A stretch of 64,000 nt of DNA from Verrucomicrobiota bacterium. GTDB taxonomy: Bacteria; Verrucomicrobiota; Verrucomicrobiia; Limisphaerales; UBA11358. The translations under genes were made by a program, and so were the position numbers. Below, piece after piece: positions 719 through 23,344 of this stretch. The stretch covers positions 18,676-82,675 of the forward strand of contig JBEKBA010000001.1 of NCBI GenBank assembly GCA_050015635.1, given 5' to 3'. Positions within the stretch are counted from its first letter, which is position 1. Every line of letters starts with the position of its first letter. The notes beneath the pieces are model-generated. The model searched no databases. It was not told the origin of the DNA and saw nothing but the letters and a program-made list of their open reading frames with translations.

Positions 719-747
719 TTGCGCGGACGGCACGAAAAGTTTAGTGT
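719..747 (+). promoter_or_regulatory. putative sigma70-type promoter of tRNA-Gln
   Basis: TTGCGC (719-724), 17 nt spacer, TAGTGT (742-747), ending 10 nt upstream of the tRNA 5-prime end. Confidence 0.4.
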
Positions 748-757
748 GCTTGCGATT

Positions 758-831
758 TGTCCGATGGTGTAATGGTAACACAGCGCCCTTTGGAGGCGTT
801 ATTCATGGTTCGAATCCATGTCGGACAGCCA
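758..831 (+). tRNA. tRNA-Gln (anticodon UUG)
   Basis: Cloverleaf read by eye. The 7-bp acceptor stem tgtccga/tcggaca is followed by discriminator g and an encoded CCA. The anticodon stem gcgcc/ggcgt carries loop cTTTGGa (anticodon TTG). The T arm is ggttcgaatcc. Confidence 0.9.
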
Positions 832-1150
832 ATTTATCCAATGAAAATGAGGGGGCTACGGCTGTTTGCACAGAATTTGCACAGCAACCGGCACGAACTG
901 CTGACCGTCGCGTGAAATTCCCTGTCACCATCCGCCACCGCCGAACGCATTGTGCGCGAACTGACAAACGGATCACAGGCCGCCGCCCTCAACGCCAGCC
1001 AGTCCCGGCGTGCCCTTGCCGCCTTTGAACGGCTGGATGGCCACTTCAAGTCCAAAGGGAAGCACATCAGCCTTACTGGCGTTAAACATTGCCTCGAATT
1101 GAGGTGACATTTTACCCAAACATTAAGAATGTCTTTTGCCGCGCTTGTTT

Positions 1151-1829
1151 ATGGAATTCATTCGAAACACTCGTGGTAATACAGGGAAATTGGAAACAAT
1201 ACACCGTTCGGTTACAAAATATGCAGAACGTGTTCTGGCTGCCGTTGCATACGTCGCCCAAGAACGCCCGTTTTTGGAGGTATGCTGGGAAGAAAAAAAA
1301 ACCGCTTACCCTTTACGCCAGGCATGACCACACAGGCCCGGTTCACCCTGATATTTTTGATTGGTTTTTTTCAAAATCTAAACAATCAGCGAATTACGAA
1401 ATCCGTCTAATCCGAGGTATTTTTCATCCCAAAATTATTTGGTGGAAAAAAGTCGGTGCATACATTGGTTCTGCAAACCTCACAGATGCAGCTTGGTTCA
1501 GAAATTATGAGGCGGGTATTTTTCTTACTGAAGAGGAAATAATAGAAGCTGGTTTTCATAGCGATCTTGATGATTATTTTGATGAAATTCACCAAGCATC
1601 ACATGTAGTGACAGAGGAGATTGCAAAACAAATCAAAGAAATCGTGTTTAAAGGCTTTGGTCCGGCAGATTACAAATTTGAAAAAGAATTTAATAAATCA
1701 TGTCCCATTCCAGAGTTGCCTTCACTTATTTCGATAACTCGTGTGCCGAGCAGCGAACGAAAGAAGGGAAAATTTTTGAATGAGTGGAGCCAGACACTTC
1801 AATATGACGTAACAATTCACAGCGGATAG
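1151..1829 (+). pseudogene. PLD/HKD-superfamily nuclease-like gene interrupted by a frameshift at an A9 run (1293-1301)
   Basis: Frame 2 from ATG 1151 reads MEFIRNTRGNTGKLETIHRSVTKYAERVLAAVAYVAQERPFLEVCWEEKK. After the A9 run, frame 3 continues PLTLYARHDHTGPVHPDIFDWFF...IRLIRGIFHPKIIWWKKVGAYIGSANLTDAAW, which holds the HxK..GSxN HKD motif. Deleting one A joins the two frames. The stretch is AT-richer than its flanks. Confidence 0.6.
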
Positions 1830-1915
1830 TGCAAACGTCATGCCGGCGGGTTGGTGAAAGATTTGGCCAAAGGCTCGCAGGTTTCTGAAACTTTTGTTCA
1901 CACATTTGTTTCCGG

Positions 1916-1944
1916 TTGAAGCAGGAATTTTCCACCGCTATCGT
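1916..1944 (+). promoter_or_regulatory. putative recG promoter (leaderless geometry)
   Basis: TTGAAG (1916-1921), 17 nt spacer, TATCGT (1939-1944), then 7 nt to ATG 1952. Confidence 0.45.
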
Positions 1945-1951
1945 GCGGCCA

Positions 1952-3961: not shown

Positions 3962-4007
3962 AAATTTTACTTGCCGCAGACGAAGGTTTAACAGAGGCTC
4001 AATGTGT

Positions 4008-4139
4008 ATGAAAAAATTATTCACGTTAGTCGCAGTGTTTAGTCTCGTTTGCGTCGGATTGTTGACCGGTTGCCAGAAGTCGGAAACGCCTTCCAATACC
4101 ACACCGGCGACGCCGTCCACAAACGCGCCGGCGCAATAA
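4008..4139 (+). CDS. small putative lipoprotein (43 aa)
   Basis: Own translation: MKKLFTLVAVFSLVCVGLLTGCQKSETPSNTTPATPSTNAPAQ*. It has a signal peptide and an LLTGC lipobox. It is below the ORF-track size cutoff. An in-frame ATG at 4002 is an alternative start. Confidence 0.5.
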   Translation: MKKLFTLVAVFSLVCVGLLTGCQKSETPSNTTPATPSTNAPAQ

Positions 4140-4223
4140 ATCCCGGCATTTTGCCCGCAGCTGCGCCGGCCTTTCCCCTGAAAGGCCGGTGGTTTTTCTT
4201 TAGGTGGTTAAGACAATTGTTTC

Positions 4224-4251
4224 TTGGATTTTTCACGGCTTGGATTAGATT
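4224..4251 (+). promoter_or_regulatory. putative promoter, leaderless geometry, for the lipoprotein gene at 4258
   Basis: TTGGAT (4224-4229), 16 nt spacer, TAGATT (4246-4251), then 6 nt to ATG 4258. Confidence 0.45.
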
Positions 4252-4257
4252 GCCGTC

Positions 4258-4620
4258 ATGAAAACATCTCTTTTTTTTATGGTCGCGGTCGGGGTGCTTC
4301 TGACCGGTTGTGGTGACAACAATTCCAGCAAGACCGCGCAAGCCACGAACCCGCCCGCAAGATACGACAGTGGCAATCCGCTGACGGTGGTGCCGGATTA
4401 TATTGGCGCGGTCGGTCAGGCGCAGAAATACTCGATCAAGCAAATTGACCTTGCGTATCTCAATCAGGCCATCCAGCAGTTCAACGCTTCGGAGGGACGT
4501 TTTCCCAAAGACCTGAACGAACTCATCCCGAATTACATCGGCAAAATCCCCGATGCGCCCTACGGTTCAAAAATTGTCTATGACCCGAATAGTGGCACGG
4601 TCAAAGTGGTGCCACAGTAA
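4258..4620 (+). CDS. lipoprotein of unknown function (pseudopilin-like C-terminal region)
   Basis: ORF 4258..4620. The signal peptide MKTSLFFMVAVGVLLTGC carries a lipobox. The C-terminus FNASEGRFPKDLNELIPNYIGKIPDAPYG resembles type II secretion/pilin-like folds. Confidence 0.7.
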   Translation: MKTSLFFMVAVGVLLTGCGDNNSSKTAQATNPPARYDSGNPLTVVPDYIGAVGQAQKYSIKQIDLAYLNQAIQQFNASEGRFPKDLNELIPNYIGKIPDAPYGSKIVYDPNSGTVKVVPQ

Positions 4621-4711
4621 ATTTTTTTGATTCTATGGAGATAGGTGCCGCATAATGGATTTCTTTCAAACTTTTCCATCCATCCGATTGCGACAGTATT
4701 GATAGACAAAG

Positions 4712-6280
4712 TTGACCGCGCCCGCCAATCATAAACCGGTGAACGAGCAAATTGTCATCCTTGATTTCGGGTCGCAATACACGCAGGTCATCGCGCGCCG
4801 CGTTCGCGAGTGCAATGTGTATTCGCAAATTCTCCGCTATGATACGCCGGCAAGGGAAGTCTCAAAATTAAAGCCCGGCGGAATTATTTTGTCCGGGGGA
4901 CCTTCGAGTGTTTACGCGAAAAAGGCGCCACTGCCCGACAAAAACATTTTCACGCTGGGTGTGCCCATCCTCGGAATTTGTTACGGCGTGCAATTATTCG
5001 CGCAATTTCTTGGTGGCAGAGTCGAGCAGGGCCAGAAACGCGAATATGGCAAAGGCACGCTCACGGTGAAGGATTCGTCGTGCGCGCTGTTCGCCAATCT
5101 GCCGGAGTCACTGCAAGTCTGGAATTCCCACGGCGACAAACTCACGAAATTACCGCGCGGGTTCAAACCCGTTGCCGTCACGGATAATTCCGAATACGCG
5201 GCGATTGAAAATCGCACGCGGAAATTTTTCGGCCTGCAATTTCATCCCGAGGTCGTCCATACAACGCGCGGCGGGGAAATCATCGCCAATTTCGTCCATG
5301 GCGTTTGCGGCTGTGGAAAAAACTGGACGATGCGGAGTTACATTGACCAGGCCATCAAAGAAATTCGCGCCCAAGTGGGTGGTGAAAAAGTGATTCTCGG
5401 TTTGAGCGGTGGCGTGGATTCGAGCGTCGCTGCGGCGTTATTGCACAAGGCCATTGGAGCTCAACTCACCTGTATTTTCGTCAACAACGGTTTGCTCCGC
5501 GCTCGCGAAGCGGAAGTTGTGCAGGAAGTTTTCGGGCGAAATTTCAAACTCAAACTGCAATATGAGAACGCGGCGGATTTATTTTTGCAGCGGCTCAAAG
5601 GCGTGGTCGAGCCGGAACGCAAACGCAAGATTATCGGCAAGACATTCATCGAAGTTTTTCAAACGGCCACCAGGCGTGTGGGCAAGGTGAAATTTCTCGC
5701 GCAAGGCACGCTGTATCCGGACGTGATCGAGTCCGTGCCGATTGCCGGAAATCCCGCCGCGCTCATCAAAAGCCATCACAACGTTGGCGGACTTCCAAAA
5801 AAAATGAAATTTCAATTGGTCGAACCATTGAAACGTTTGTTCAAGGACGAAGTGCGTTTGCTCGGTTTGGAATTGGGATTGCCCAAGGAAATCGTCTGGC
5901 GCCAGCCATTCCCCGGTCCCGGTCTGGCCGTGCGCGTGCTGGGCGAAGTCACGCCGTCGCGTTGCGAAATCTTGCGGAACGCGGACGCCATCGTCGTCGA
6001 AGAAATGAAAGCGAGCGGGCTATATTACAAAATCTGGCAAAGCTTCGCGGTGTTGTTGCCCGTGCGCAGTGTGGGCGTGATGGGTGACGAGCGGACTTAT
6101 GATTATACGATTGCGATTCGCGCCGTGGAATCGCAAGATGGGATGACAGCGGATTGGGTGAAACTGCCTTACGAACTTCTGGAAAAACTCGCAAGCCGCA
6201 TCATCAACGAAGTAAAGGGCGTGAATCGCTGCGTGTTCGACATCACGAGCAAGCCGCCGGGGACGATTGAGTGGGAATGA
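4712..6280 (+). CDS. guaA: GMP synthase (glutamine-hydrolysing)
   Basis: ORF 4712..6280 with a TTG start. It shows the GATase signature [18 protein letters not shown], the PP-loop [10 protein letters not shown], and the C-terminal KPPGTIEWE. Confidence 0.95.
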
Positions 6281-6356
6281 CTCGGCACGAATTTTTTTCT
6301 GGTCTGCGCCATGCTGCAGGTTTATCCTGAAGGCAACAGTCAAACCATTCCGGCTT

Positions 6357-6860
6357 ATGGACATCATTTTCGATTGCCCGCATTGTGATCAAGAACTGGC
6401 GGTGGATAGCTCCGGCGCGGGCACGGAAATCGAGTGCCCGTCGTGCGGCGAGACCATAATGATTCCCAAGGAATCCACGAAATCAGCTTCCGCGCCGACG
6501 GGAGTGCCTGCGCCGGGTCTGGCTCCCAGCGCCATCGCTTCGTCCGCCGCCGCCAAGGTCACGATGCACCTGAAAGTGCCTGTACATGACAAGCCGGGCG
6601 AAAGTCTCATCAAAAAATCGGCTGTGCCGCTCGAAGCTGTAGCCAAGGGCGCGGACAAAAAAATCCGCGTCCACACCATTCGTCGTGCGAGTTGCGTCGA
6701 AGCCGGCCACGACAAGTTTGATGAAGTCGTCACGCGATTTTTGAACGAAGTGAGCGAGGCGAATATCATCGGCGTTCACACAATTTCCTATACCTACTTC
6801 GACGTTGGCACGCAAAAGATTTTGAACGATTACGGCGTGCTGGTGATTTATCGGGGATAA
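6357..6860 (+). CDS. zinc-ribbon domain protein of unknown function
   Basis: This is the ATG 6357 sub-ORF of 6267..6860. The protein begins MDIIFDCPHCDQELAVDSSGAGTEIECPSCGETIMIP (CxxC...CxxC), followed by an Ala/Pro linker and a C-terminal globular region. Confidence 0.7.
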   Translation: MDIIFDCPHCDQELAVDSSGAGTEIECPSCGETIMIPKESTKSASAPTGVPAPGLAPSAIASSAAAKVTMHLKVPVHDKPGESLIKKSAVPLEAVAKGADKKIRVHTIRRASCVEAGHDKFDEVVTRFLNEVSEANIIGVHTISYTYFDVGTQKILNDYGVLVIYRG

Positions 6861-6878
6861 AATGTGCTTGTGCCCGCC

Positions 6879-6907
6879 TTGACTTGCAAATTTCAGGCCG
6901 TTAATTT
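6879..6907 (+). promoter_or_regulatory. putative promoter, leaderless geometry, for the BamD-like gene
   Basis: TTGACT (6879-6884), 17 nt spacer, TAATTT (6902-6907), then 6 nt to ATG 6914. Confidence 0.5.
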
Positions 6908-6913
6908 CGCCGC

Positions 6914-7921
6914 ATGAATCGTCGGCTTGCCTACATGTTTTTTGCGGCTGCGTGCGTGATTTTGTTTCCATTCCGCTCGCCGGCGCCGTTGATCTATATG
7001 CCGGGTGAAGGCTGGTATTACGAACCTTACGGCGAGAACATTCAATGGAAACGTGACCGCGCCAAAGACCAGTTGGATGTGGCGCAGCAGGCGTTCGACA
7101 AACATGATTACGACACGGCGCTGCACGCGGCGAATCGTATTGTACGCGTGTGGCCGTTGTCAGATTACGCGCCGGATGCGCAATATCTCATCGGTCGCTG
7201 TTTTGAAGCGACGGGCAAGGATGAAGTGGCGTTCAATGCATACCAGACCATCATCGACAAATATCCGCACAGTGAAAAATACGAAGACGTGCTCTGGCGG
7301 CAATACGGCATTGCCACCCGTTTTCTGGCCGGCCAATGGTTTAAATTGTGGAGGTACATTCCGTTTTTCCCCTCGATGGATCGCACGGCGGATATGTTTG
7401 GTAAAATCGTCAAGGAAGGGCCTTACAGCAACGTGGCACCGCACGCGCAGTTGCGCATCGGTGCGGCGCGTGAGAAGCAAAAAAATTATGAGGACGCGGT
7501 GCAAGCCTACGAAACCGCCGCCGACCGGTATCGTAACCAGCCGGTGATTGCGGCTGACGCATTGTTTCGCGAAGGTATTTCCTACGCGAAACAGGCGGCA
7601 ACCGCCGAATACGATCAGGGCACCGCAGCGAAAGCCATCGCGACGTTCACCGATTTTATCACGTTTTATCCTGACGACCGGCGCGTGCCGACGGCACAGC
7701 GGGCGATTGTCGTGCTCAAAGCCGAGCAGGTGCGCGGCAATTTTGAAATCGCGCAATTTTACGAAAAGAGCAAAACGTTGAGCGCGGCGCAGCGGCGCAA
7801 CGGTGCGGTGGTTTACTACAACGAAGTGTTGCAGCTCAACCCCAATTCGCCTTACGCGGCAGCGGCGCGCCAGCGCATCGAGGCGCTCAAACCGCTTGCG
7901 CCAATCGCACCCGCCAGTTGA
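6914..7921 (+). CDS. bamD: outer membrane protein assembly factor BamD-like TPR protein
   Basis: ORF 6914..7921. It has an N-terminal signal sequence and TPR-like repeats (AQQAFDKHDYDTALHAANRIV, AQYLIGRCFEATGKDEVAFNAYQTIIDKYP, AQLRIGAAREKQKNYEDAVQAYE). An LptE-like gene follows directly. Confidence 0.75.
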   Translation: MNRRLAYMFFAAACVILFPFRSPAPLIYMPGEGWYYEPYGENIQWKRDRAKDQLDVAQQAFDKHDYDTALHAANRIVRVWPLSDYAPDAQYLIGRCFEATGKDEVAFNAYQTIIDKYPHSEKYEDVLWRQYGIATRFLAGQWFKLWRYIPFFPSMDRTADMFGKIVKEGPYSNVAPHAQLRIGAAREKQKNYEDAVQAYETAADRYRNQPVIAADALFREGISYAKQAATAEYDQGTAAKAIATFTDFITFYPDDRRVPTAQRAIVVLKAEQVRGNFEIAQFYEKSKTLSAAQRRNGAVVYYNEVLQLNPNSPYAAAARQRIEALKPLAPIAPAS

Positions 7922-7922
7922 A

Positions 7923-8435
7923 ATGCGCCCGCTGAAATTTTTTGCCCTCTGCACACTGGCGGTGTCGCTCGCCGGTTGCGCCGGTTATCGTCTTGGCCCG
8001 GTCAACGGCGAAATCGCCGGTGAAAAATCCATCGAAATCCTGCCGTTCAACAACCAGACGCTTCAGCCACGCCTCGGCGACGCAGTGACGCAGGCGTTGC
8101 GTGAACGATTGCAAACCGATGCCACCTACCACCTCGCCACCCGCGGTGACGGCGACATCGTTGTCACCGGCGTCATCACGAGATACAACCGTCAGGGCTT
8201 GGGGTATCTGAACAACGATGTGACGACGACGGATAATTACCGCGTCAACGTCACCGCGCACGTCGTTGCGCGTGAACACGCGACCGGCAGGGTGTTGCTC
8301 GACAAAAACGTGACCGGCTATACACTCGTACATGTCGGCACGGATTTGGCGGATGCGGAACGACAGGCCGCGCCGTTGCTGGCGGAGGATTTGGCGCAAA
8401 ACATCGCGGAACTGTTGACCGAGGGCGTGTGGTAA
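7923..8435 (+). CDS. lptE: LptE-like LPS-assembly lipoprotein
   Basis: This is the ATG 7923 sub-ORF of 7803..8435. It begins MRPLKFFALCTLAVSLAGCAGYRLGP (lipobox) and has the LptE-like size and pattern (IEILPFNNQT...). It starts 2 nt after the bamD-like stop. Confidence 0.65.
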   Translation: MRPLKFFALCTLAVSLAGCAGYRLGPVNGEIAGEKSIEILPFNNQTLQPRLGDAVTQALRERLQTDATYHLATRGDGDIVVTGVITRYNRQGLGYLNNDVTTTDNYRVNVTAHVVAREHATGRVLLDKNVTGYTLVHVGTDLADAERQAAPLLAEDLAQNIAELLTEGVW

Positions 8436-8673
8436 AAAGAATCGCGTCGGGTGGAGGATTTGTCAGCGTTTTTTGGTTTCAAAAGTAAACACAACCCATC
8501 AACCCTGTGAAAAGACAGGCACTGAAAATCGCGACGTTAAGCTTGTTCGTGGTGGCAATTGTCGTCACGTCCGCGTCGTCGCGCGCGAAAAATGCCAGAT
8601 CCAACGCGCCAGCCGGCAATTAAAAAGCTGAAAATTAATCAGGTCAGAGCGGGCAGCGATGCCGCCTTATTTA

Positions 8674-9669
8674 TTACCGCCGCCACCAACTGCTCAAACT
8701 TTTGGGTTTAAGTGGTGGCGCTTGGGATTGGCGCACGAGCAACTGGCTGCGCGCGTTGGTCAACGCCATCACGAATTCGTCATAGCTCAAAAACCGGCTC
8801 GCTGGATTTTTGGCCATGGCTTTCACCAGCGCGTCGCTCGTCGGCTGTGTGACTTCGGGCAAGACCAGATTCGGCGGCGTCAAGGGCGTTTGCACTTGGG
8901 CGACAACCAGTTCCTCAACTGTCGGCGCGTCGAACGGAACATGTCCGGTCAATGCGTGATACAGCGTCGCGCCCAAACTATACATATCGGACAAAGAAGT
9001 CTCCGGCTCGCGCTTGATTTTTTCCGGCGCGACGTAATAAGGCGTGCCTTCGGTGACGGCAGTGTATTCCTGTTCTGCATCGGCTTTGCGTGCCAGGCCA
9101 AAATCCACCAGCTTCGGTTCGTGATCCTCGTTGAATAAAATGTTGCCCGGTTTGATGTCCCGATGGATCAAATTGTGTTTGAGCGTCAGATCGAGCGCGG
9201 AGGCGATTTTGATGCCGATGTCCAGCACGTCCAATTCGGCGACGCGCTGCATTTTTTCGATGCGCGTGTCAAGGCTGCCATGATCCGCGAGTTCCATCAC
9301 GAGGTAATGCATGCCCTCCCACTCGTCGAACGTGTAGATATGGATGATGTTTGTGTGATTGAGTTGCGCGCACGCCCGCGCTTCGCGATAAAAACTTTCC
9401 CGCGCCTGTGTGTCTTCCAGCAATTCCTTTTTCATCAACTTCACCGCCACCTGCCGCTCCAGCGTCGTATCCCAGCCGCGATACACCGTGCCATTGCCGC
9501 CCGACGCCACAAAACTGCGCAACTCAAACTGCCTCAACCGCATCGGCATCATGATCGGCTGGCCGCATTTCCTGCACGGCACTGTCGCCAGCGGCGCAAG
9601 ATCGCCGGGAATAAATTCCTTCGTCCCGCACCAGTGGCACGTTACCATCCGCAGTGGTTTGTCGCTCAT
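8674..9669 (-). CDS. serine/threonine protein kinase with N-terminal zinc ribbon
   Basis: ORF 8674..9669. The N-terminus has CHWCG...CRKCG. Hanks kinase motifs seen are GGNGTVYRG, VAVKLM, HRDIKPGNILF, DFGLA and APE. Confidence 0.92.
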   Translation of the reverse strand: MSDKPLRMVTCHWCGTKEFIPGDLAPLATVPCRKCGQPIMMPMRLRQFELRSFVASGGNGTVYRGWDTTLERQVAVKLMKKELLEDTQARESFYREARACAQLNHTNIIHIYTFDEWEGMHYLVMELADHGSLDTRIEKMQRVAELDVLDIGIKIASALDLTLKHNLIHRDIKPGNILFNEDHEPKLVDFGLARKADAEQEYTAVTEGTPYYVAPEKIKREPETSLSDMYSLGATLYHALTGHVPFDAPTVEELVVAQVQTPLTPPNLVLPEVTQPTSDALVKAMAKNPASRFLSYDEFVMALTNARSQLLVRQSQAPPLKPKSLSSWWRR

Positions 9670-11707: not shown

Positions 11708-12559
11708 TTAAATTTTCGCAATCAAAATTCTGGCGCGTTGAGAGTAGTCATCCTTCACCGCTTCGACAATCCACTTTTCATTTTCAAAAATTTTCCGAAT
11801 CGTCCCGGCCTGGCCATCGCCGAATTCCAGCATCATTTTCCCGGCCGGTTTCAAAAGTGATTTTACCTTCGTTGCGAGCAGGCGATAAAAATTCAGGCCA
11901 TCCGCGCCGCCGTCCAATGCGCCGCGCGGATCAAAGTCGCGCACTTCCGGTTGGAGTGTGGTGATTTCGGCGGACGGAATGTAAGGCGGATTGCTGACAA
12001 TGAGATCAAAGCGCGTGTCGGCCGGCAATGCGGCAAAATTGTCGCTTTGCAAAAATTGGATTTTTTCCGTGACATTATTTCGCGCAGCGCTTTGCGCGGC
12101 CAACACGAGCGCGTCTGCCGAAATATCTGTTGCAACAATTTTTGCCGCCGGACATTTTGCCGCGAGTGTGATGGCGATGCAGCCACTGCCGGTGCCGAAG
12201 TCGAGAGCAGTTGAGGGTTGAGCGTTGAGAGTTGTGAGAAATTGCCAGCCGAGTTCGGCGAGGATTTCGGTTTCAGGGCGCGGAATCAGGACGTGACGGT
12301 TAACGGCGATTTCCAATCCGCAAAACGAAGTCGATCCGGTGATGTGTTGGAGCGGTTCGCGCAGGCCGCGGCGTTTGACAAGTTTGCGCAACGCGTCCGT
12401 TTCCACTGGCGTGAGCGTACGCTCGAAATTCAGATACAATTTCATGCGCGGCATTTTCAGCAGATGCGCGAGCAGCAACTCCGTTTGCAGGCGCGGCGAT
12501 TCGACGCCCCTTTGCCCGAGAAAATCCGCGCTCTTCTGAATCGCTTCGAGAACCGTCAC
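11708..12559 (-). CDS. prmC: peptide chain release factor N5-glutamine methyltransferase
   Basis: ORF 11708..12559 with a GTG start. It carries the SAM motif DFGTGSGCIAI and the catalytic NPPY (VSNPPYIPS). Confidence 0.9.
   Translation of the reverse strand: MTVLEAIQKSADFLGQRGVESPRLQTELLLAHLLKMPRMKLYLNFERTLTPVETDALRKLVKRRGLREPLQHITGSTSFCGLEIAVNRHVLIPRPETEILAELGWQFLTTLNAQPSTALDFGTGSGCIAITLAAKCPAAKIVATDISADALVLAAQSAARNNVTEKIQFLQSDNFAALPADTRFDLIVSNPPYIPSAEITTLQPEVRDFDPRGALDGGADGLNFYRLLATKVKSLLKPAGKMMLEFGDGQAGTIRKIFENEKWIVEAVKDDYSQRARILIAKI
12211..12238. repeat. tandem heptanucleotide array (ttgagNg x3 + ttgtgag) inside prmC
   Basis: Read directly: ttgaggg ttgagcg ttgagag ttgtgag. On the coding (minus) strand it encodes TTLNAQPST, just before the SAM-binding motif. 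Confidence 0.8.
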
Positions 12560-15280: not shown

Positions 15281-16540
15281 ATGGCCAGTAATTCAACAGA
15301 ACGTCGTGTCGTCATCACCGGTCTTGGTGTGGTGACGCCACTCGGACAGCAATTGGACGTTTTTTGGAACAAATTGATTTCCGGGCAATGCGGCATCGAC
15401 CGGATCAGTTCGTTTGAGCCGTCGGCGTTGGACACGCAAATCGCCGGGGAAGTGAAAAACTTTGATCCGACACCGGCATTTCCTTCGCCCAAAGAAGTCC
15501 GGCGCACGGATCGCTATTCGCAGTGCGGTGTTTACGCCGGATGGCAGGCGCTCAAGGATTCCGGCCTCGACCTGGAAAAGGAAAATTGTGACGAAATCGG
15601 TGTCATCATCGGTTCCGGCATCGGCGGGCTGGAAACGACCGCCGAGCAGCACAAGATTCTGATGGAGCGCGGACCGGGCCGGCTTTCGCCGTTCATGATT
15701 CCGATGCTCATCAGCAACATGGCCTCCGGTCTGTTCTCGATGTTTTACCATCTGCGCGGGCCGAATTTTGCCACCTGCTCTGCGTGCGCGACGGCGAACC
15801 ACGCCATCGGCGAAGCCTGGCGCGCCATCAAAATGGGGGACGCGCCGGTGATGTTCGCTGGCGGCGCGGAAGCGGCCATCACACCCATCGGCATCGGCGG
15901 GTTTTGCGCAATGCGCGCCATGAGCACACGTAATGATGACCCCAAGCACGCTTCCCGTCCGTTCGACAAGGAACGCGATGGCTTTGTCATGGGCGAAGGC
16001 GCGGGCGTCGTTGTGCTGGAGGAATTGGAACACGCCAAAAAGCGCGGCGCAGAAATTTATTGCGAAGTCGTTGGTTACGGCAACACCGCCGACGCTTATC
16101 ATCTCACCACTCCGTCGCCCGACGGCGAAGGCGCGGCGCGCTGCATGAAAATGGCTTTGAAGACCGGTGGACTGAAAATTGAAGACGTGAGTTACATCAA
16201 CGCCCACGGCACTTCCACGCCACAAGGCGATGCCTGTGAAACGCAGGCCATCAAGACCGTTTTCGGTGAACACGCGAAAAAAATCGCCGTCAGTTCCACC
16301 AAAGGCGCGACCGGTCACATGCTCGGCGCGGCGGGCGCGGTCGAGATGAGCGTCTGCGCGCTGGCCATCAAGCACGGCATCGCGCCGCCGACCATCAATT
16401 ATCAAACGCCCGACCCCGAATGCGATTTGGATTACGTGCCCAACACCGCACGCGAAATGAAAGTCAACGCCATCATCAACAACTCCTTCGGTTTTGGGGG
16501 GCATAATGCGAGTATCGCAGCTAAGAAGTTCGTCGGGTAA
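15281..16540 (+). CDS. fabF: 3-oxoacyl-ACP synthase II
   Basis: ORF 15281..16540. It has the active-site Cys context CSACATANHAIG, plus NAHGTSTP, GHMLGAAG and NSFGFGGHN. Confidence 0.95.
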   Translation: MASNSTERRVVITGLGVVTPLGQQLDVFWNKLISGQCGIDRISSFEPSALDTQIAGEVKNFDPTPAFPSPKEVRRTDRYSQCGVYAGWQALKDSGLDLEKENCDEIGVIIGSGIGGLETTAEQHKILMERGPGRLSPFMIPMLISNMASGLFSMFYHLRGPNFATCSACATANHAIGEAWRAIKMGDAPVMFAGGAEAAITPIGIGGFCAMRAMSTRNDDPKHASRPFDKERDGFVMGEGAGVVVLEELEHAKKRGAEIYCEVVGYGNTADAYHLTTPSPDGEGAARCMKMALKTGGLKIEDVSYINAHGTSTPQGDACETQAIKTVFGEHAKKIAVSSTKGATGHMLGAAGAVEMSVCALAIKHGIAPPTINYQTPDPECDLDYVPNTAREMKVNAIINNSFGFGGHNASIAAKKFVG

Positions 16541-16575
16541 TCTCGATATTCAATGGAGTCTGTGTCCATCTGTGG

Positions 16576-17280
<705 letters not shown>

Positions 17281-17360: not shown

Positions 17361-18650
17361 ATGAAAGTCATCCGTCACAGCGACGCGAATTTTCTCCAAA
17401 AGCTTCGCGAAGTCACTGCATCGTCAAGCTTGTTTGATTCGGAAATCGAACAACGCACGCGCGCCATCCTGCACGAGGTTTATGTGCGTGGCGACGACGC
17501 GCTGGTGGAATTTACGGAACGCTTCGACGGCGCAAAACTTTCCGCCGATCAACTCGCCGTGACGCAAGTGGAACTCATGGCCGCGTCGCTCAAGGCGGAT
17601 GAGTCACTTCGCGCGGCGGTCACTGAAGCGGAAAAGAACGTCGCCATGTTTGCTAAAAAATCGCTGCGCAAAAGCTGGCGGATGAAAAATTCGCACGGCG
17701 CGTCAGTTGGCGAAAAATTTGATCCGTTCCAGCGCGTCGGCGTTTACATTCCCGGTGGCACCGCGCCGCTGGTTTCAACCGCGCTGATGACCCTTACGCT
17801 CGCGCGTGTCGCGGGCTGCAAGGAAATCGTCGTCTGCACGCCGTGCGGCAGGGATGGCGGCATCAATTCCGCGCTCCTGTTTGCCGCGCGGACGGCGGGC
17901 GCGACGGAGATTTACCGCGTCGGCGGCGCGCAGGCGATTGCCGCGCTGGCTTACGGCACGAACACGATCCGCCGCGTGCAAAAAGTTTTCGGACCGGGCA
18001 ACGCCTACGTTGTCACCGCCAAACGATTGCTCGTCGGCCGCGTCGCGATTGATCTGCTGCCCGGCCCCAGCGAAGTGCTGGTGCTCGCGGACGACACGGC
18101 GAATCCGAAATTTGCCGCCGCCGATTTGCTCGCGCAGGCCGAACACGGCTCCGGCTACGAACGCATCTGGCTGGTGACAACCTCGGCGAAAATTTTGAAG
18201 GCGGTCGAAAGCGAAATCGCGAAGCAGTTGCCCAAACTCGCGCGACGCGAATTCATCCGGCGCGCGTTGCAAAACAACGGCTGGCTGATTCAAGTCAAAT
18301 CGCTCGAAGACGCGATTGCGCTGACGAATCAGCTTGCGCCGGAGCATTGCGAAGTGATGACACGCAACCCGCGCAAAGTTTCCGGGGGTATCTTGACGGC
18401 AGGCGCAATTTTTCTCGGCGCGTGGTCGCCGACGGCGCTGGGTGATTACGTGGCCGGACCGAGCCACGTGCTGCCGACCGGCGGCGCGGGCGCGTCATTT
18501 GCCGGATTGACCGTGGATCAATTCCAACGCCGCACGAGCGTGGTGGAATACAATCGCGCCTCGCTCAAGAAAGCGCTGAAGACAGTGAAAAAAATTGCGG
18601 AACTTGAAGGCTTGGGCGCGCATGGGAAAAGCGTGGAGATAAGTAAATAA
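17361..18650 (+). CDS. hisD: histidinol dehydrogenase
   Basis: ORF 17361..18650, with GGAQAIAALAYGT, QAEHGSG, APEHCEV and C-terminal GLGAHGKSVEI. Confidence 0.95.
   Translation: MKVIRHSDANFLQKLREVTASSSLFDSEIEQRTRAILHEVYVRGDDALVEFTERFDGAKLSADQLAVTQVELMAASLKADESLRAAVTEAEKNVAMFAKKSLRKSWRMKNSHGASVGEKFDPFQRVGVYIPGGTAPLVSTALMTLTLARVAGCKEIVVCTPCGRDGGINSALLFAARTAGATEIYRVGGAQAIAALAYGTNTIRRVQKVFGPGNAYVVTAKRLLVGRVAIDLLPGPSEVLVLADDTANPKFAAADLLAQAEHGSGYERIWLVTTSAKILKAVESEIAKQLPKLARREFIRRALQNNGWLIQVKSLEDAIALTNQLAPEHCEVMTRNPRKVSGGILTAGAIFLGAWSPTALGDYVAGPSHVLPTGGAGASFAGLTVDQFQRRTSVVEYNRASLKKALKTVKKIAELEGLGAHGKSVEISK
18600..18631 (+). repeat. direct repeat copy 1 (last codons of hisD)
   Basis: The sequence gaacttgaaggcttgggcgcgcatgggaaaag is identical to 18815-18846. 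Confidence 0.9.
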
Positions 18651-18814
18651 ATTATTAACACGAAATGCAAAGAGTGAAATGAGCCAAACACCTCCAAAAA
18701 AATCAAAAACATGGATTGGCGCATCAACAATCTCACATGGACGACTGCGCCGTTTATTAACCCCGAAACTTCGGCAGTCGTGCCAGCAGGTGCGGCAATT
18801 GCTAAATCAAAGGA

Positions 18815-18846
18815 GAACTTGAAGGCTTGGGCGCGCATGGGAAAAG
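18815..18846 (+). repeat. direct repeat copy 2 (orphan copy of the hisD 3-prime end)
   Basis: A perfect 32/32 match to 18600-18631. It lies 183 bp downstream of copy 1, outside hisD. Confidence 0.9.
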
Positions 18847-18875
18847 TGCGAAAGCAATGATTCAAAAAACAGAAC

Positions 18876-19127
18876 ATGAATTCTCAAATTCGACCAGACC
18901 GTCTTTTCCGCTACTTTCCGCCAGACGCATCGGATTTTTTCTCCGCGAAGAAACTTTGGTTTTCCACGCTCAAAGACTTGAATGACCCTTTCGACGCCCT
19001 TCCTAGGTTTGACGTACTGATAGAAAGCGAAAGGCAGCACTCAATTAAGATGGAGCATGCCTTTCTAAACTTTCTGAAAATTCGGATTGAACGCCTTCAC
19101 GCCTTCACCAGTGTTTTCGCGCAATAG
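18876..19127 (+). pseudogene. N-terminal fragment of a DUF2971-like protein
   Basis: ORF 18876..19127 (83 aa). LFRYFPPDASDFFSAKKLWFSTLKDLNDPFD matches the N-terminal signature remembered for DUF2971 (..Y....l.....lwfs....lNDP.E), whose members are about 250-300 aa. The reading frame decays where it meets the 3-prime end of hicB. Confidence 0.45.
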
Positions 19128-19447
19128 CTGTTAAGGCTTTCTCCGGCGGCAAGGGCTTTGGCCGCCAGCCGCCGATGCAACGCCGGTTCAACGCGCAATA
19201 TAAATTTGCCGCTGAAATCACTCACTTTGCCCAACGGTGCGGGCAGCGGGTGTCCATCCGTTTCCAGAATTTCAATCCATTCCTCCACGATCTGACAAAG
19301 TTCGGCATAAACCTTTGCCTCGTCCTTGCCGTGACAGCATTCGCCAATGAGCGGCGGCGCGCTGCCCACAAAACAGCCGTCTTTGTCGCTCCATTCCACA
19401 ATTTTCGTGTAGTGAGCAGCTTTCGCCTTTATTTCGCTCTTTTTCAT
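19097..19447 (-). CDS. hicB: type II toxin-antitoxin system HicB-family antitoxin
   Basis: ORF 19097..19447. It has the HicB N-terminal fold pattern (YTKIVEWSDKDGCFVGSAPPLIGECCHGKDEAKVYAEL) and a C-terminal RHH-like segment (KFILRVEPALHRRLAAKALAAGESLNSY). It overlaps the hicA stop by 4 nt. Confidence 0.88.
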   Translation of the reverse strand: MKKSEIKAKAAHYTKIVEWSDKDGCFVGSAPPLIGECCHGKDEAKVYAELCQIVEEWIEILETDGHPLPAPLGKVSDFSGKFILRVEPALHRRLAAKALAAGESLNSYCAKTLVKA

Positions 19448-19638
19448 TTCTGCGATTCCTCAATTCTCTGCCGCACTTGCCGTTCCTGATAGGGTTGCGC
19501 GTCGTGACCGGGATTGCCGCTCAACGTGACACGCGCGCCTGTCGGATGAATAAAATTCCGATGACTGCCCTTGCCGCCCCGGTTCACAAACCCCGCCCGC
19601 TCCAACTCGGCAATCAATTGTCGAACCTTGCGCGGCAT
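19444..19638 (-). CDS. hicA: type II toxin-antitoxin system HicA-family mRNA interferase toxin
   Basis: ORF 19444..19638. MPRKVRQLIAELERAGFVNRGGKGSHRNFIHPTG is typical of HicA/YcfA. Confidence 0.88.
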   Translation of the reverse strand: MPRKVRQLIAELERAGFVNRGGKGSHRNFIHPTGARVTLSGNPGHDAQPYQERQVRQRIEESQK

Positions 19639-19640
19639 TT

Positions 19641-19658
19641 CAGTATCGAATCAGTATC
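19641..19658. promoter_or_regulatory. direct repeat cagtatc-N4-cagtatc abutting the hicA start (candidate HicB operator)
   Basis: cagtatc at 19641-19647 recurs at 19652-19658, starting 3 nt upstream of the hicA ATG on the minus strand. Confidence 0.3.
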
Positions 19659-19823
19659 ACCTTCAATACCATAATGCAACGCTGTGAAACGTCAAGAAAC
19701 TGAATTTTCTTCTCAAATTCCACTTGATGCCGCAAACCGCTAATTCTTGGCTTGCCGGATGCTGTTTGTTTCAATCGTGAGCGTCTCAAAAAATGAATGT
19801 AACCCTTGAACTGATTAACTGCC

Positions 19824-21308
19824 ATGAACAACGGACACCCCTTGAACAACGGCGAAAACCGCAACAAGTTTCCGCTGGTGCGAAAGCCGGCCAGTGCGGT
19901 TGAAAAAGCCGCGCCCGGCGCGAAGCGTATTTTGTCCGGCATGGTTGCGGACACTCTCGCGCTGACAAAAAATAAGAAGCGGAAAAAACTGCGAATCGTT
20001 GTTCTGGATGATGAAGAAGGTGCGAGACAAGGATGCGTAGCAATGCTCAAATCCTGCTGGCCAAATGGGGCAGAAATACTGGAATTTGGAGACTCTCTTG
20101 ACGCTTGGCAGGAATTGTCACGCACTGACCCCGATCTTTTCATAACAGATATTCGGCACGCTGGAATTTCATGCACAGAAATGTTGACGCGACTGGCCGC
20201 AAGAAAAATTAAATATCCTATCTTGGTTATATCTGCATCACATATGTTTGATGTTGATACCCTGCGCGGATGGGGATCGGGTCTCAACGTCTCATTTCTG
20301 TCCAAACCTATCACTGTTAAACAGTTCCATGCGGCTATTGAAACAGCTTTGAAAATCAAAATCACGCGCGATGCTGCGATGCGGGATGAAACCATGTCAA
20401 TCGAGTCGCGTTCATTCAAACGGCGCGGCACGCTGCTGGTCGTGGACGACGAGGAAGGCGTCCGCGAGTCCATGCGCGTGATTTTCGAGGACGAATACGA
20501 TTTATTCATGGCCGAGGACGGGGTGACGGCCATCAAGCTCGCGCAGGAAAATGACATTGATGTGGTCGTGACGAATATCCATATGCCCGGAATGTCAGGC
20601 ATCGAGTTGTTGAAGCCGCTCAAATACAGAAGGCCAGACATCGAGGTGATAATGATGACGGGGATGGACACAACCGACACCCGCCGCATGGCCTTGCGGC
20701 TGGGGGCATGTGATTTCATCAACAAGCCATTTGATGCAACGACCATTCGCGCCGCCGTCAGCAAGGCGATGCAGCGTCGCACGCTCGAAAGCGAAATAAC
20801 AGCAGCGCAGAAAAAATCTAGCAGTAACACAGAAAAAATTCCAGACCAACCGCCTCAAACGCACCCGCTCAAAATTATTCCGTTGGATTACGAGAACATA
20901 GTGGGTGAATTCACTGATTTCCTCGCCTCTCACTCGCCTCTAATTGGTGACTGTAGCTTGCTGCCATACCCTAAGAAGACCATTCATTATGCAATTGCCT
21001 CGGTCTTGAATGACTACGAAAGCAAACGGGAGGACACCACGAATCAAGCCCTTTTAGAAAAATACGAAAAGATTATTCCGACCCTCCGGTATGCTCTTAC
21101 GCGACTTGTCAACGACTGGCAGGAGATTGACCCGGAGGATAAGGAGGCAATCGCAAAACTTAGCCGATTCGACACGTTGCCCGACTGGGCACTACCATTA
21201 AAACTGAAATACCTTGATGACGAAAGAGCAAGGAATGAGGCCTGCGAAATGGCAATCCAAGTAATAAAGGACAAAGTTGAACGTGAGAAGAACAGTGCTG
21301 ATTTCTAA
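19824..21308 (+). CDS. two-receiver-domain protein (REC + Asn-substituted pseudo-REC) with an unassigned C-terminal domain of about 170 aa
   Basis: ORF 19824..21308. REC1 reads LRIVVLDDEE...DLFITDIRH...LSKP. REC2 reads LLVVDDEEG...DVVVTNIHMPGMSG...MMTG...NKPF, with Asn at the phospho-acceptor position. I did not recognise the C-terminal region. Confidence 0.8.
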   Translation: MNNGHPLNNGENRNKFPLVRKPASAVEKAAPGAKRILSGMVADTLALTKNKKRKKLRIVVLDDEEGARQGCVAMLKSCWPNGAEILEFGDSLDAWQELSRTDPDLFITDIRHAGISCTEMLTRLAARKIKYPILVISASHMFDVDTLRGWGSGLNVSFLSKPITVKQFHAAIETALKIKITRDAAMRDETMSIESRSFKRRGTLLVVDDEEGVRESMRVIFEDEYDLFMAEDGVTAIKLAQENDIDVVVTNIHMPGMSGIELLKPLKYRRPDIEVIMMTGMDTTDTRRMALRLGACDFINKPFDATTIRAAVSKAMQRRTLESEITAAQKKSSSNTEKIPDQPPQTHPLKIIPLDYENIVGEFTDFLASHSPLIGDCSLLPYPKKTIHYAIASVLNDYESKREDTTNQALLEKYEKIIPTLRYALTRLVNDWQEIDPEDKEAIAKLSRFDTLPDWALPLKLKYLDDERARNEACEMAIQVIKDKVEREKNSADF

Positions 21309-21317
21309 AAATCAATC

Positions 21318-22148
21318 GTGTCAACCAAACCTGTCATCTACACAAACCCAGAGTTGGAGCAATTGCGTCAGCTTGTGGCCGGGGCGCGCTCGCAGTTGGC
21401 GGAATTGGAAGTTGAATACACCAAAGAGAAATCGCGCGTGGACGTGGTGCAGGCGGCGTTGTTCCGGCTTTTGCGCGAACATTATCATAAACGCGATAGG
21501 CTACGTCTCACGGTGGATTACCGGCGAAAGTTTTTGGACGCGCTCATGCGCGGCGACGAAAAGGAAGCAAAACAGGCCGAGAAAAATTTTGAGCAGGCCA
21601 ACACGCAATCGGACAGAGATTACGAAGAATTGTCGGCAGCGGCGGACAAAAAACAGAATTTGACCACCGAGCAGGAAGCCGAGTTGATGCAGCTCTGGAA
21701 AAAGCTGGTGAAACTGTATCATCCCGACCGTTTCGCCAACGAGCCGGACAAACTGGAAACATATAATAAACTGACTGCCGCGATCAATCGGGCAAAAGAC
21801 AGCGGCGACATTGAGACGTTGCGGGAGATTGCAGAAGACCCGCAAGGTTTCATACTGCGTCAAGGCTGGGCGAGTCTTGATTTCGGCGACACGGAAGAAC
21901 TGGCTCAATTGTGCCGGTTGCACGAAACGTTGCAAAAGGAAATTGCCGCCGTCACGGAATCGCTAAAGCAGTTGCGCGAAAGTCCCGATTACGAACTTTG
22001 CCAGTTGGCGGAGCAGAAGCCGGGCATTTTGGACGAACTGGCGACGGAACGGGCGAAGCAGCTTGAAATTGAAAATGCGGAGTTGGAAAATCAGGCTGAA
22101 CGGCTAGCGAAGGAGATTAAGAAATTGTCAGGCAAGTCGGCAGAATGA
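21318..22148 (+). CDS. J-domain (DnaJ-like) protein with flanking coiled-coil regions
   Basis: ORF 21318..22148 with a GTG start 9 nt after the upstream stop. The J-domain core is LMQLWKKLVKLYHPDRFANEPDKLETYNKLTAAINRAK (HPD motif). Both flanks are heptad-like and E/K/Q-rich. Confidence 0.8.
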   Translation: MSTKPVIYTNPELEQLRQLVAGARSQLAELEVEYTKEKSRVDVVQAALFRLLREHYHKRDRLRLTVDYRRKFLDALMRGDEKEAKQAEKNFEQANTQSDRDYEELSAAADKKQNLTTEQEAELMQLWKKLVKLYHPDRFANEPDKLETYNKLTAAINRAKDSGDIETLREIAEDPQGFILRQGWASLDFGDTEELAQLCRLHETLQKEIAAVTESLKQLRESPDYELCQLAEQKPGILDELATERAKQLEIENAELENQAERLAKEIKKLSGKSAE

Positions 22149-22195
22149 ATGATTTAGTTTTTTTTTGCAGTTGAGAATTCACTTTGAAATTTAGA

Positions 22196-23344
22196 ATGAG
22201 CAAAACGAGTTTGAAAAATTTAATCCGTCCGCTTGTGCGCGATTTGCACCCTTACGTCTATGGCGAGCAGCCGAAAATCAAGGGACTGATCAAACTCAAC
22301 ACGAACGAGAATCCGTATCCGCCCTCGCCGAAAGTTCTGGCAGCGGTGAAAAAAGCGACGGATACGCGGCTGCGGCTGTATCCGAGTCCGACGGCGCAGG
22401 CGTTACGCGAAAAACTGGCGAAGTTGCATGGCTGCCACGCAGACAACCTTATCGTCGGCAACGGGTCGGATGAATTGCTGGCGCTGGCCACGCGGGCGTT
22501 TGTGGAGCCGGTATGGACGGCGCGCTGCGGTCCTTGCAGGCTGCCACCAAGGTCATCGCAGCGCGATGGCCCCATCAATATTGTTCAGTATTTCACGCCG
22601 AGCTATTCGCTTTATCCGGTGCTGGCGGACATTCATGGTGCACGAAAAAATCCCGTGCCGCTTAAGCCGGATTTCAGTTTACCGACCGTCGCGGAATTGA
22701 AGCGTGGTAAGGTTTGGGACTTTCGCGCGGCGCTGACTTTTGTCACCACGCCAAACGCGCCGAGCGGACGCGGGTATAAAACATCGGAGTTGGAAAAACT
22801 TTGCCGCGTGCAGAAAAGCGTCGTCGTTCTTGATGAGGCTTATGTGGATTTAGCCAATGAAAACGCGCTGAAACTGGCGCTGAAGTTTTCGCACGTTCTC
22901 GTCGCGCGAACTTTTTCCAAGGCATATTCGCTTTGCTTTCAACGCATCGGATATTTCGTCGGGCATCCCGACCTCATCGCGGCGTTGCACAAAATCCGCG
23001 ACAGTTACAACGTGAACGGCCTCGGTCAGGTTGCAGCCGAAGCAACGTTAAATGATTTAAAATACTACCGTGCAAATTTCAAAAAAATTATTATGACGCG
23101 CGAATGGTTGAGCCGTGAGTTGACGAAAATGGGCTTCCGCGTTTTTCCGAGCCGGACGAATTTCATTCTAGCCATTCCACCGTGTTTTCCAGCGAAGTTA
23201 TGGCTGGAAAAGTTGCGTGAACAAAAAATTCTAGTGCGCTGGTTCAATTTTCCCGAAGTAAAAAAGTATCTGCGCATCACCATTGGCACGCAGGTGGAAG
23301 TGGAGGCGCTGATTGAAGCGGCGCGGAAAATTTTGGCGGGTTAG
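22196..23344 (+). CDS. hisC: histidinol-phosphate aminotransferase
   Basis: This is the ATG 22196 sub-ORF of 22184..23344, with LNTNENPYPPSP, LDEAYVD, the PLP lysine context TFSKAY, and LRITIGT. Confidence 0.9.
   Translation: MSKTSLKNLIRPLVRDLHPYVYGEQPKIKGLIKLNTNENPYPPSPKVLAAVKKATDTRLRLYPSPTAQALREKLAKLHGCHADNLIVGNGSDELLALATRAFVEPVWTARCGPCRLPPRSSQRDGPINIVQYFTPSYSLYPVLADIHGARKNPVPLKPDFSLPTVAELKRGKVWDFRAALTFVTTPNAPSGRGYKTSELEKLCRVQKSVVVLDEAYVDLANENALKLALKFSHVLVARTFSKAYSLCFQRIGYFVGHPDLIAALHKIRDSYNVNGLGQVAAEATLNDLKYYRANFKKIIMTREWLSRELTKMGFRVFPSRTNFILAIPPCFPAKLWLEKLREQKILVRWFNFPEVKKYLRITIGTQVEVEALIEAARKILAG

Follow-up and report, generated by a model that had tools for sequence, protein, structure and literature searches.

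What has separated hisD from hisC in a Verrucomicrobiota bacterium of the Limisphaerales, and how did the 3' end of hisD come to be present twice between them? The genes lie in a 64,000-nucleotide (nt) stretch of assembly GCA_050015635.1 (contig JBEKBA010000001.1, positions 18,676 to 82,675), hereafter the window, whose numbering is used wherever no other locus is named. An initial annotation had placed the end of hisD at 18650 and the start of hisC at 22196, with an AT-richer islet of ~3.5 kb between them. Both the split and the compositional break were borne out. The islet, which holds five open reading frames (ORFs), has a GC content of 0.496, while hisD reaches 0.598, hisC 0.525 and the window as a whole 0.533. 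The islet value is the 1.5th percentile among same-size windows, and the tetranucleotide distance of the islet is at the 96th percentile. The islet is judged, with reasonable though not high confidence, to be the layered product of repeated small insertions at a once-overlapping hisD/hisC junction.

The window was compared with two reference sets, giving 201 loci in all, with flanks of 10 kb. The first set comprises 80 species-level relatives (Verrucomicrobiota subdivision 3 / Limisphaerales) with HisD proteins 76–89% identical, and the second 120 metagenome contigs retrieved with a degenerate hisD tail pattern; loci carry labels such as L001. Two loci, L070 and L161, were left out of the counts. 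In L070 a run of N (7753-8046), either masked sequence or a scaffold gap, breaks hisD, with a match to the tail profile on either side. In L161 inverted tail copies lie at both contig ends, 550-679 on the minus strand and 5232-5374 on the plus strand. Both are probably assembly artefacts.

The duplicated hisD end and its spacer

The 32-mer GAACTTGAAGGCTTGGGCGCGCATGGGAAAAG occurs exactly twice in the window, both times on the plus strand. The perfect recurrence at 18815-18846, outside any hisD context, was therefore confirmed. The 32-mer is not a common dispersed repeat, since no further copy with three or fewer mismatches was found in the window; none was found in 100 shuffles either. The pair is the sole substantial direct repeat of the window, which contains no other tail-type repeats. 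Nowhere in the hisD 3' end is the nucleotide sequence better conserved among 200 loci than in the block that holds copy 1; this block is the probable crossover region. It is followed by AGCGTGGAGATAAGTAAATAA, which encodes KSVEISK and a stop codon, so that the gene ends in a tail of the type '...GKSVEISK'.

Copy 2 is embedded differently. The DNA directly upstream of it is not hisD, and on the downstream side its homology to hisD extends beyond the 32 nt first reported: the exact identity stands at 32 nt, whereas the hisD homology spans 41 nt (18814-18854). Over these 41 nt the segment is 97.6% identical to the native hisD tail of L034, and it is 97% identical to that of L036. The match to both tails reaches past the 32-mer (AGTGCGGAAG). 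In a tail of the L034/L036 type, which reads '...GKSAEV..', the segment takes up positions -54 to -14, the final ~14 nt and the stop codon of the tail being gone. A profile search with nhmmer placed the segment at positions 97-135 of the hisD-tail profile with an E value of 3.5e-5. Because the L034-type ending continues beyond the 32-mer, a different ending follows copy 1 and the upstream DNA is not hisD, these comparisons identify copy 2 as a pseudo-tail, the previous 3' end of hisD, which was shifted 215 nt downstream by an insertion that regenerated the gene. The last ~20 nt of the present hisD and its stop codon came with the most recent insertion. A single hisD tail is present in the 36 loci of the adjacent type described below and in L034 and L036.

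Nine contigs with identical HisD, from several samples, share this arrangement, which shows it to be genuine and fixed in the species. No strain-level empty site was found, the islet being present in nine of the nine contigs. The window feature is an old, fixed scar around a 164-nt stump, with the his genes intact, and both its junction (-54/-50) and its spacer are private to its species.

The 32-mer pair had been regarded as a border of the islet. This view had to be abandoned, since the pair brackets only the 164 nt between the hisD stop codon and the pseudo-tail (18651-18814). The spacer and the new tail end are the sole DNA delivered by the event that created the repeat. The spacer has no nucleotide homologue in 200 related loci and contains no Rfam family, terminator or convincing promoter. 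No credible gene was found in it, its ORFs of 47–49 amino acids (aa) being without a family. One of them, a 49-aa ORF at 18711-18860, crosses the spacer and the pseudo-tail in another frame. Public annotation lists it as a gene in the same-species contigs L081-L086, but it is most likely spurious. The spacer is probably the stump of a decayed cassette.

Insertions at the junction in relatives

In the 81 loci formed by the genomes and the window, hisD and hisC overlap or abut (ATGA) in 20 and are split by 94-8806 nt in 27, while 34 have no hisC in the available downstream DNA. Many genome loci of the last kind are synteny breaks with housekeeping genes (EPSP synthase, BacA, ALAD) and not islands. 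The 120 metagenome contigs comprise 16 with overlapping or abutting genes, 25 split, 71 with no hisC downstream and 8 with no usable hisD end. The overlap is thus seen in 36/201 loci and the split in 52/201. This agrees with the expectation that the two genes are normally contiguous, and their adjacency is supported as the ancestral state in the clade. The contents of the islet differ in nearly every species.

A search profile built from the final 150 nt of hisD revealed ~26 pseudo-tails in 24/201 loci, with three hisD tails each in L124 and L131. Together with the varying islet contents, this upholds the proposal of a repeatedly used insertion hotspot. Repeat lengths in the relatives range from 43 to at least 150 nt. 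The polarity of the events is set by three clean single insertions (L024, L052 and L203), in which the pseudo-tail is still joined to hisC via the native ATGA overlap and an insert of 0.65–0.86 kb brings the replacement tail: the new tail arrives with the insert and the old tail goes downstream. Stacking is also evident. In L019, L057 and L061 hisD is followed immediately by a ParE-type module, whereas in L028 this module lies 1.1 kb downstream, behind another one. New inserts therefore settle beside the housekeeping gene and push older ones inward.

The inserts in these related soil Verrucomicrobia are mostly type II toxin-antitoxin (TA) cassettes of 0.6–1 kb, and the pseudo-tail junctions group by cassette family (Table 1). 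Family A cassettes are 81–93% identical where the hisD bodies are only 73–81% identical. The 400 nt past the pseudo-tail are unrelated in 21/21 pairs, and the junction is always at about -93. The same cassette has thus entered the same position in many backgrounds. The crossover points of family A are not locatable from tail polymorphisms, since the tail and pseudo-tail of one genome are alike, possibly through gene conversion. Similarly, family E cassettes are 88–89% identical where the hisC bodies are 76–79% identical. The TA cassettes therefore spread horizontally, with junctions that are family-specific.

The hisD tail is one of three gene ends used in this way. Copies of the first ~80 nt of hisC, termed pseudo-heads, precede the real gene in about 13 loci and break off on the right at +76 to +85; family E adjoins most of them, and the islet thus also grows from the hisC side. 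The window itself has the hisC head type 'MxK.SLKNLIRP', which is typical for genomes bearing islets. The third end belongs to aroA (EPSP synthase, minus strand), which is convergent after hisD in the closest genomes, L001 and L002. In both, the last 79–95 nt of aroA, ending in '...GYEKMDAKLRKLGARIQRVEEK' and the stop codon, recur 0.6–0.74 kb away. The boundary of the aroA pseudo-tail is identical in the two genomes and the cassettes are different. The phenomenon is thus not hisD-specific.

Several further repeats were noted in these loci. Orphan hisD pseudo-tails with no nearby hisD body occur among ordinary genes in L156 (166-245, minus strand) and L202, so that pseudo-tails outlast rearrangements; the L156 copy adjoins ordinary genes that include a TfoX_N-domain protein of a competence-regulator family. 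In L046 (and also L042) a GC-rich repeat of ~80 nt with the near-palindrome GGAGCGGCTCCGG occurs three times (2366-2448, 3107-3182 and 3871-3947) at a spacing of about 740–765 nt, and a 69-nt repeat pair is present at 3199-3267 and 4061-4129; the periodicity resembles a cassette array. A tandem motif, (CGCRAAGG) repeated two to three times as in TTCAACGCAAAGGCGCGAAGGCGCAAAG, follows 9 of ~220 hisD tails, which are 9 of its 29 occurrences in 2 Mb (L117 at 245-275, L160, L123, L124, L142, L119, L090, L040 and L058), and it often runs into a small ORF starting MKLPN. As a general recombination site the motif was rejected, given these 9 of ~220 tails and its absence from the window; it probably marks one cassette lineage.

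Resident genes, neighbouring genes and feature coordinates

The pseudo-tail is followed by an 83-aa ORF that matches no Pfam family. Its match to the PADLOC candidate PDC-S31 has an E value of 1.4e-5 and covers positions 2-57 of 259 of the profile, and it shares 46% identity over 39 aa with an equivalent ~82-aa fragment behind the L028 pseudo-tail. Full-length DUF2971-like genes of 286–321 aa hold this position in L117 and L204. The ORF is plausibly the remnant of a DUF2971-like or PDC-S31-like gene that once lay directly after hisD, a name not confirmed by Pfam.

The hicBA pair meets the definition of a HicAB type II system, with adjacent HicA toxin and HicB antitoxin genes (PF05534, E 2.5e-11, 43.8 bits against a cut-off of 21; PF07927, E 1.2e-10, 41.8 bits against a cut-off of 27). 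It occurs at this position in the window's species only, and its sole nucleotide relative (70%) lies elsewhere in L185. The pair was added separately from the resident genes.

The REC-REC protein bears a conserved N-terminal leader of ~35 aa, ..FALVRKPSSAVEKAAPGAKRILSGMV.. (DNA 19862-19970). The leader is found on diverse proteins, always preceding a J-domain gene, and is present in L003, L009, L028 (twice), L069, L117, L131 (twice), L160, L182, L184, L186 and L204. The J-domain-like protein that follows matches PF00226 with an E value of 7.5e-4 and 20.0 bits, under the cut-off of 27.8 bits, and the match is equally weak in four orthologues. Its gene sits beside hisC in several genera and is 74–83% identical at the nucleotide level in L003/L106, L028, L069, L204, L131, L111, L142 and L159. 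PADLOC models gave insignificant matches only for the REC and J proteins, and no significant NCBIfam model was found for the J protein. The accessory genes named in the initial annotation were thus upheld for hicAB and the REC-REC protein; the DUF2971-like assignment is plausible without Pfam support, and the J-domain assignment combines a sub-threshold match with an HPD motif.

Other genera (L028, L003, L117, L204 and L131) share the order of the DUF2971-like, REC and J genes. In L028, as in the window, a pseudo-tail is followed by a DUF2971-like fragment, a REC protein and a J gene; the pseudo-tails of L028 and L003 (junction -43) lie 5.7 and 0.8 kb downstream of hisD, respectively. The full-length DUF2971-like gene in L117 and L204 and the gene order of L028 indicate that the arrangement 'hisD tail - DUF2971-like gene - leader protein(s) - J protein - hisC' was resident earlier and was struck independently by different inserts in different lineages. 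The bulk of the islet, made up of the DUF2971-like fragment and the REC and J genes, is thus an older module shared across genera, which was in place before the insertion that created the repeat. The comparison with relatives gave a divided answer to the earlier proposal in this respect: hisD and hisC are adjacent in 36/201 loci, as it expected, but some relatives carry the same DUF2971-like, REC and J genes between hisD and hisC, which counts against it.

The recurrent unit consists of a DUF2971-like gene, at least one leader protein with varying C-terminal domains (REC, Sel1/TPR, unassigned) and a coiled-coil J-domain-like protein, and this three-part module could be an undescribed signalling or defence system. 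The REC-J module occurs a second time in L028, in truncated form (16427-16519 and 18484-18576). Also in L028, a 55-nt direct repeat that is 85% identical and not derived from hisD (12087-12141 and 16992-17046) flanks a 4.85-kb insert; insertion with long duplication thus also occurs inside the islet.

Outside the islet, the his pair is flanked by pyrF (minus strand) upstream and by an AAA_22 ATPase gene downstream. The two-part Pfam match of HisC had suggested an insertion inside the window's gene. This was ruled out: residues ~106-130 (22511-22585) form a hypervariable loop of ~25 residues that splits the match in two, and the loop is present with differing sequences in all aligned relatives, which makes it a lineage feature. 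At the fabF-pyrF junction (16540-16576), fabF abuts pyrF in the window, L082 and L084. Extra genes lie upstream of pyrF in L081, L083, L085 and L086 despite a HisD identical to that of the window. Among these four strains only L081 has enough upstream sequence for the genes to be read (1-9216, compared with 7921-9216 of L082), and they comprise an N6/N4 methyltransferase, an AAA ATPase, a helix-turn-helix protein, an RHS/YD-repeat protein and small ORFs. The fabF-pyrF junction is a second hotspot, currently polymorphic, one gene from hisD.

Table 1 Features of the window and of related loci. Pfam families of hisD and hisC are from a scan of the window; cassette positions are relative to the gene named.
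Feature	Locus	Position	Strand	Description
hisD	window	17361-18650	+	intact; PF00815, E 4e-148
Repeat copy 1	window	18600-18631	+	read in the hisD frame as ELEGLGAHGK, close to the 3' end, 50 to 19 nt ahead of the end of the stop codon
Spacer	window	18651-18814	+	164 nt, GC 0.44, between hisD stop and pseudo-tail
Pseudo-tail	window	18814-18854	+	former hisD 3' end; holds repeat copy 2 (18815-18846)
DUF2971-like fragment	window	18876-19127	+	83-aa ORF, N-terminal, ~57 homologous residues
hicBA	window	19097-19638	-	type II toxin-antitoxin; HicB 19097-19447, HicA 19444-19638, 4-nt overlap
REC-REC protein	window	19824-21308	+	494 aa; PF00072, E 6e-40, two stretches
J-domain-like coiled-coil protein	window	21318-22148	+	276 aa; HPD motif (LYHPDRF)
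hisC	window	22196-23344	+	PF00155, E 2e-44
Three-part module	window	19824-22148		
Three-part module	L028	14296-19322		
Three-part module	L131	2338-4707		
Three-part module	L204	2796-5201		
Three-part module	L117	670-1646		
hisC pseudo-head	L205	2757-2837		bounded
hisC pseudo-head	L014	11912-11986		bounded
hisC pseudo-head	L125	1654-1719		bounded
hisC pseudo-head	L180	3226-3297		bounded
hisC pseudo-head	L114	1749-1817		bounded
hisC pseudo-heads	L179, L031, L127, L150, L183, L111, L153, L192			eight open-ended contigs
aroA tail copies	L001	12275-12353 and 13016-13094		741 nt apart, VapBC cassette between
aroA tail copies	L002	6909-7003 and 7511-7605		602 nt apart, RelE-like cassette between
Family A cassette	at least 8 contigs	hisD -93		RelE/HI1419-like toxin (TIGR02683) and HI1420 antidote (TIGR02684), ~660 nt, own promoter-operator
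Family B cassette	L113, L179, L182	hisD about -98		antitoxin and MazF-like toxin
Family C1 cassette	L114, L124	hisD -150 or beyond		no recognised TA pair (148-aa unannotated ORF in L114)
Family C2 cassette	L171, L203	hisD -150 or beyond		no recognised TA pair (112-aa unannotated ORF in L203)
Family D cassette	L003, L028, L202, L154, L124	hisD -43		Phd-like antitoxin and neighbouring PIN-like ORF (both by eye)
Family E cassette		hisC +76 to +85		VapB/VapC(PIN) (VapC = TIGR00028), start TTGACTTTGATGCGGTGATGCAATAGCATCAGATGCATGAGAAC

Mechanism, alternatives and known systems

Across these loci, recombination falls in a gene-end block, the gene is regenerated by the incoming DNA, the old end is displaced, successive inserts stack, and no recombinase is encoded in cis. 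The mechanism that best fits the analysis, with somewhat better than even confidence, is 'insertion with long target duplication', probably spread by host homologous recombination. In the window, incoming DNA recombined inside the conserved ELEGLGAHG block and supplied the new tail end, the stop codon and the 164 nt. More generally, a rare founder event, through illegitimate recombination or one-sided homology, would yield a cassette lying between a functional gene end and a pseudo-end. Both arms of such a cassette would then have homology to the block with the highest nucleotide conservation near the gene terminus (VKKFAELEGLGAHG for hisD and IRPLVRELHPYV for hisC), and host homologous recombination, for example after DNA uptake, could insert it into diverged genomes with no dedicated recombinase. 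Recombination between the repeats would also allow precise loss of the cassette. In the window, the cassette would since have decayed to the 164-nt stump. The use of the hisD tail, the hisC head and the aroA tail argues for a homology-based process rather than an att site specific to hisD. It is tentatively suggested, at rather less than even confidence, that TA cassettes in Limisphaerales are recombinase-free 'homing' cassettes, which carry a substitute gene end and a pseudo-end arm and are inserted additively and reversibly by host recombination.

A number of points weigh against insertion by host recombination. The mechanism is inferred, and for the event in the window itself the searches yielded neither a circular form nor an empty site nor a donor; the spacer matches nothing, so that it is at most a putative former cassette. 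Each family has a fixed junction (-93, about -98, -43, -150 or beyond; hisC +76 to +85), which a site-specific enzyme acting in trans would fit too. Homology arms of 40–95 nt that are 75–90% identical are poor substrates for RecA. In L149 and L112 the tail and pseudo-tail are more alike than expected, which requires gene conversion as an extra assumption. Finally, the recombinase scans described below cover the 10-kb flanks only.

Among the alternatives the strongest, though considered unlikely, is that the repeat is a classical site-specific integration scar. The hisD 3' end would have served as attB either for an island or satellite whose integrase-bearing part was later deleted or for a small element that a tyrosine recombinase encoded elsewhere mobilised in trans, much as in tycheposons, and attL and attR would now lie 215 nt apart. 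The regenerated target, the family-specific fixed junctions and the stacking are hallmarks of integrase-mediated islands such as tycheposons, and the target was indeed regenerated by element-borne sequence, with hisD intact and its ending different from that of the pseudo-tail. However, no integrase, transposase or resolvase was found with Pfam among the 59 ORFs that 23 bounded genome islets contain, in 12 larger ORFs of bounded metagenome islets, in 10 ORFs beside the L156 orphan pseudo-tail, or among the window's own ORFs, the last as the initial annotation had stated. The bounded islets covered by this negative result number 52. The 131 ORFs downstream of hisD in unbounded loci include no family with more than two members, so that an integrase would be present at most once among them. 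Neither the exact 32-mer nor the degenerate tail pattern matched any of 2.9 million IMG/VR viral contigs; the integrase-bearing elements that were expected to carry the 32-mer thus appeared neither there nor in the islets scanned. In addition, the inserts are TA pairs of 0.6–1 kb, and three unrelated targets with at least eight hisD junction positions would need many different recombinases. Gene 5' ends are atypical integrase targets. The repeats lie 215 nt apart with 3.3 kb of the islet outside them, and an att model would place the displaced tail on the hisC side of the element. Of the proposal that the duplicated gene end is the scar of site-specific integration, the regeneration of hisD therefore stands, whereas the site-specific step is not supported, given three targets and no recombinase found.

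A local event is considerably less probable. If the hisD end had undergone tandem duplication of 215 bp, or slippage during replication, and had then diverged with no horizontal insertion, this would account for copies that are only 215 nt apart and identical over 32 nt, and for a spacer without a homologue. It does not account for the unrelated sequences after the two copies, for an L034-type copy 2 beside a copy 1 of another tail type, or for the non-hisD DNA upstream of copy 2. The L028 and L003 pseudo-tails moreover lie in the equivalent place before the same DUF2971-like fragment, and the pattern recurs with real cassettes in ~24 loci.

An integron-like cassette array without an integrase (CALIN), in which the hisD end is attI-like and the cassette borders are attC-like, is still more doubtful. 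In its favour, the cassettes are small and rich in TA pairs, they often carry a promoter, and the newest lie closest to the entry site; L046 has its three GC-rich repeats of ~80 nt at a spacing of about 750 nt. The borders, however, are copies of the flanking housekeeping gene and not a shared structured repeat, and by eye no common motif was seen at the right ends of families A, B, C and D and the window insert. Growth from both ends also speaks against it. No IntI-like ORF was found in the islets, and no IntI-type recombinase in any locus. An assembly artefact or chance repeat, conceivable for a metagenomic source in which mis-assembly can create short repeats, is effectively refuted by the lack of a match in 100 shuffles and by the identical arrangement in nine independently assembled contigs from different samples.

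How TA modules and other small accessory genes spread without transposases or integrases is poorly understood. The present loci form a natural series of events, clean and layered, in which displaced gene ends persist as scars and a 660-nt cassette lies at the same nucleotide position of an essential gene although the gene differs by more than 20% between genomes. If host recombination via conserved terminal codon blocks is the true mechanism, it would explain why certain core-gene junctions become hotspots, and 'insertion with long target duplication' would extend from restriction-modification (R-M) to TA systems and to a new phylum. Should the TA cassettes prove to be homing cassettes, they would provide a general, so far undescribed answer to the movement of TA modules without mobility genes, and the pseudo-copies of gene ends would be a datable record of insertion history.

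The closest known counterpart is the insertion of R-M units with long target duplication, likewise small selfish units of post-segregational killing with no mobility gene (Nobusato et al. 2000, Gene 259:99; Furuta et al. 2010, NAR, PMC2853133). R-M units insert with direct repeats of at least 30 bp, often over gene 3' ends and without mobility genes, by a mechanism that is unresolved, and mostly in naturally competent species (PMC2853133). Of the features used by Furuta et al. 2010, direct repeats of more than 30 bp are present (in the window, 32 nt identical within 41 nt of homology). Related empty sites have one copy of the repeat, while the nine same-species contigs of the window all carry the insert. 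Mobile-element genes are absent and the insert is below 20 kb, with 164 nt and no gene in the window. A complete selfish unit of R plus M is lacking; the relatives carry complete TA pairs, and the insert of the window is geneless. With TA cargo instead of R-M, the present system is therefore an analogue and not a strict member of that class. It also differs from R-M units in its Verrucomicrobiota host, in the presence of the same cassette at the same junction in many diverged genomes, in stacking from both sides of one gene junction, and in that one repeat copy is the regenerated end of an essential biosynthetic gene, with the window cargo decayed to 164 nt.

Tyrosine recombinases and tRNA-gene targets characterise the tycheposons of Prochlorococcus (Hackl et al., bioRxiv 10.1101/2020.12.28.424599). 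As in tycheposons, integration here is repeated at one site, newcomers push older elements inward and partial target copies remain. In contrast to them, no recombinase was found, the targets are hisD, hisC and aroA ends, and the inserts are under 1 kb. In integrase-mediated islands in gene 3' ends in general, as in the present loci, the element brings an end that preserves the target gene, and the gene end becomes a direct repeat; here, however, there is no integrase, the repeats bracket 164 nt and not an island, and 5' ends are also used. Homology-facilitated illegitimate recombination, or insertion-duplication in natural transformation, is a laboratory process that usually gives deletions or unique junctions. 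It resembles the present case in that one homologous anchor suffices, which makes it a candidate for the founder event, and differs from it in that cassette families with conserved junctions are seen here.

The islet also resembles core-gene-flanked hotspots and flexible genomic islets, being a hypervariable, compositionally deviant set, rich in TA and defence genes, between housekeeping genes. In classical hotspots, however, replacement proceeds through both flanks, whereas here partial duplication of the flank makes the process additive and leaves datable scars. The window alone is of modest interest; the TA cassettes with long target duplication at hisD/hisC and aroA extend a known, little-studied pattern of R-M units.

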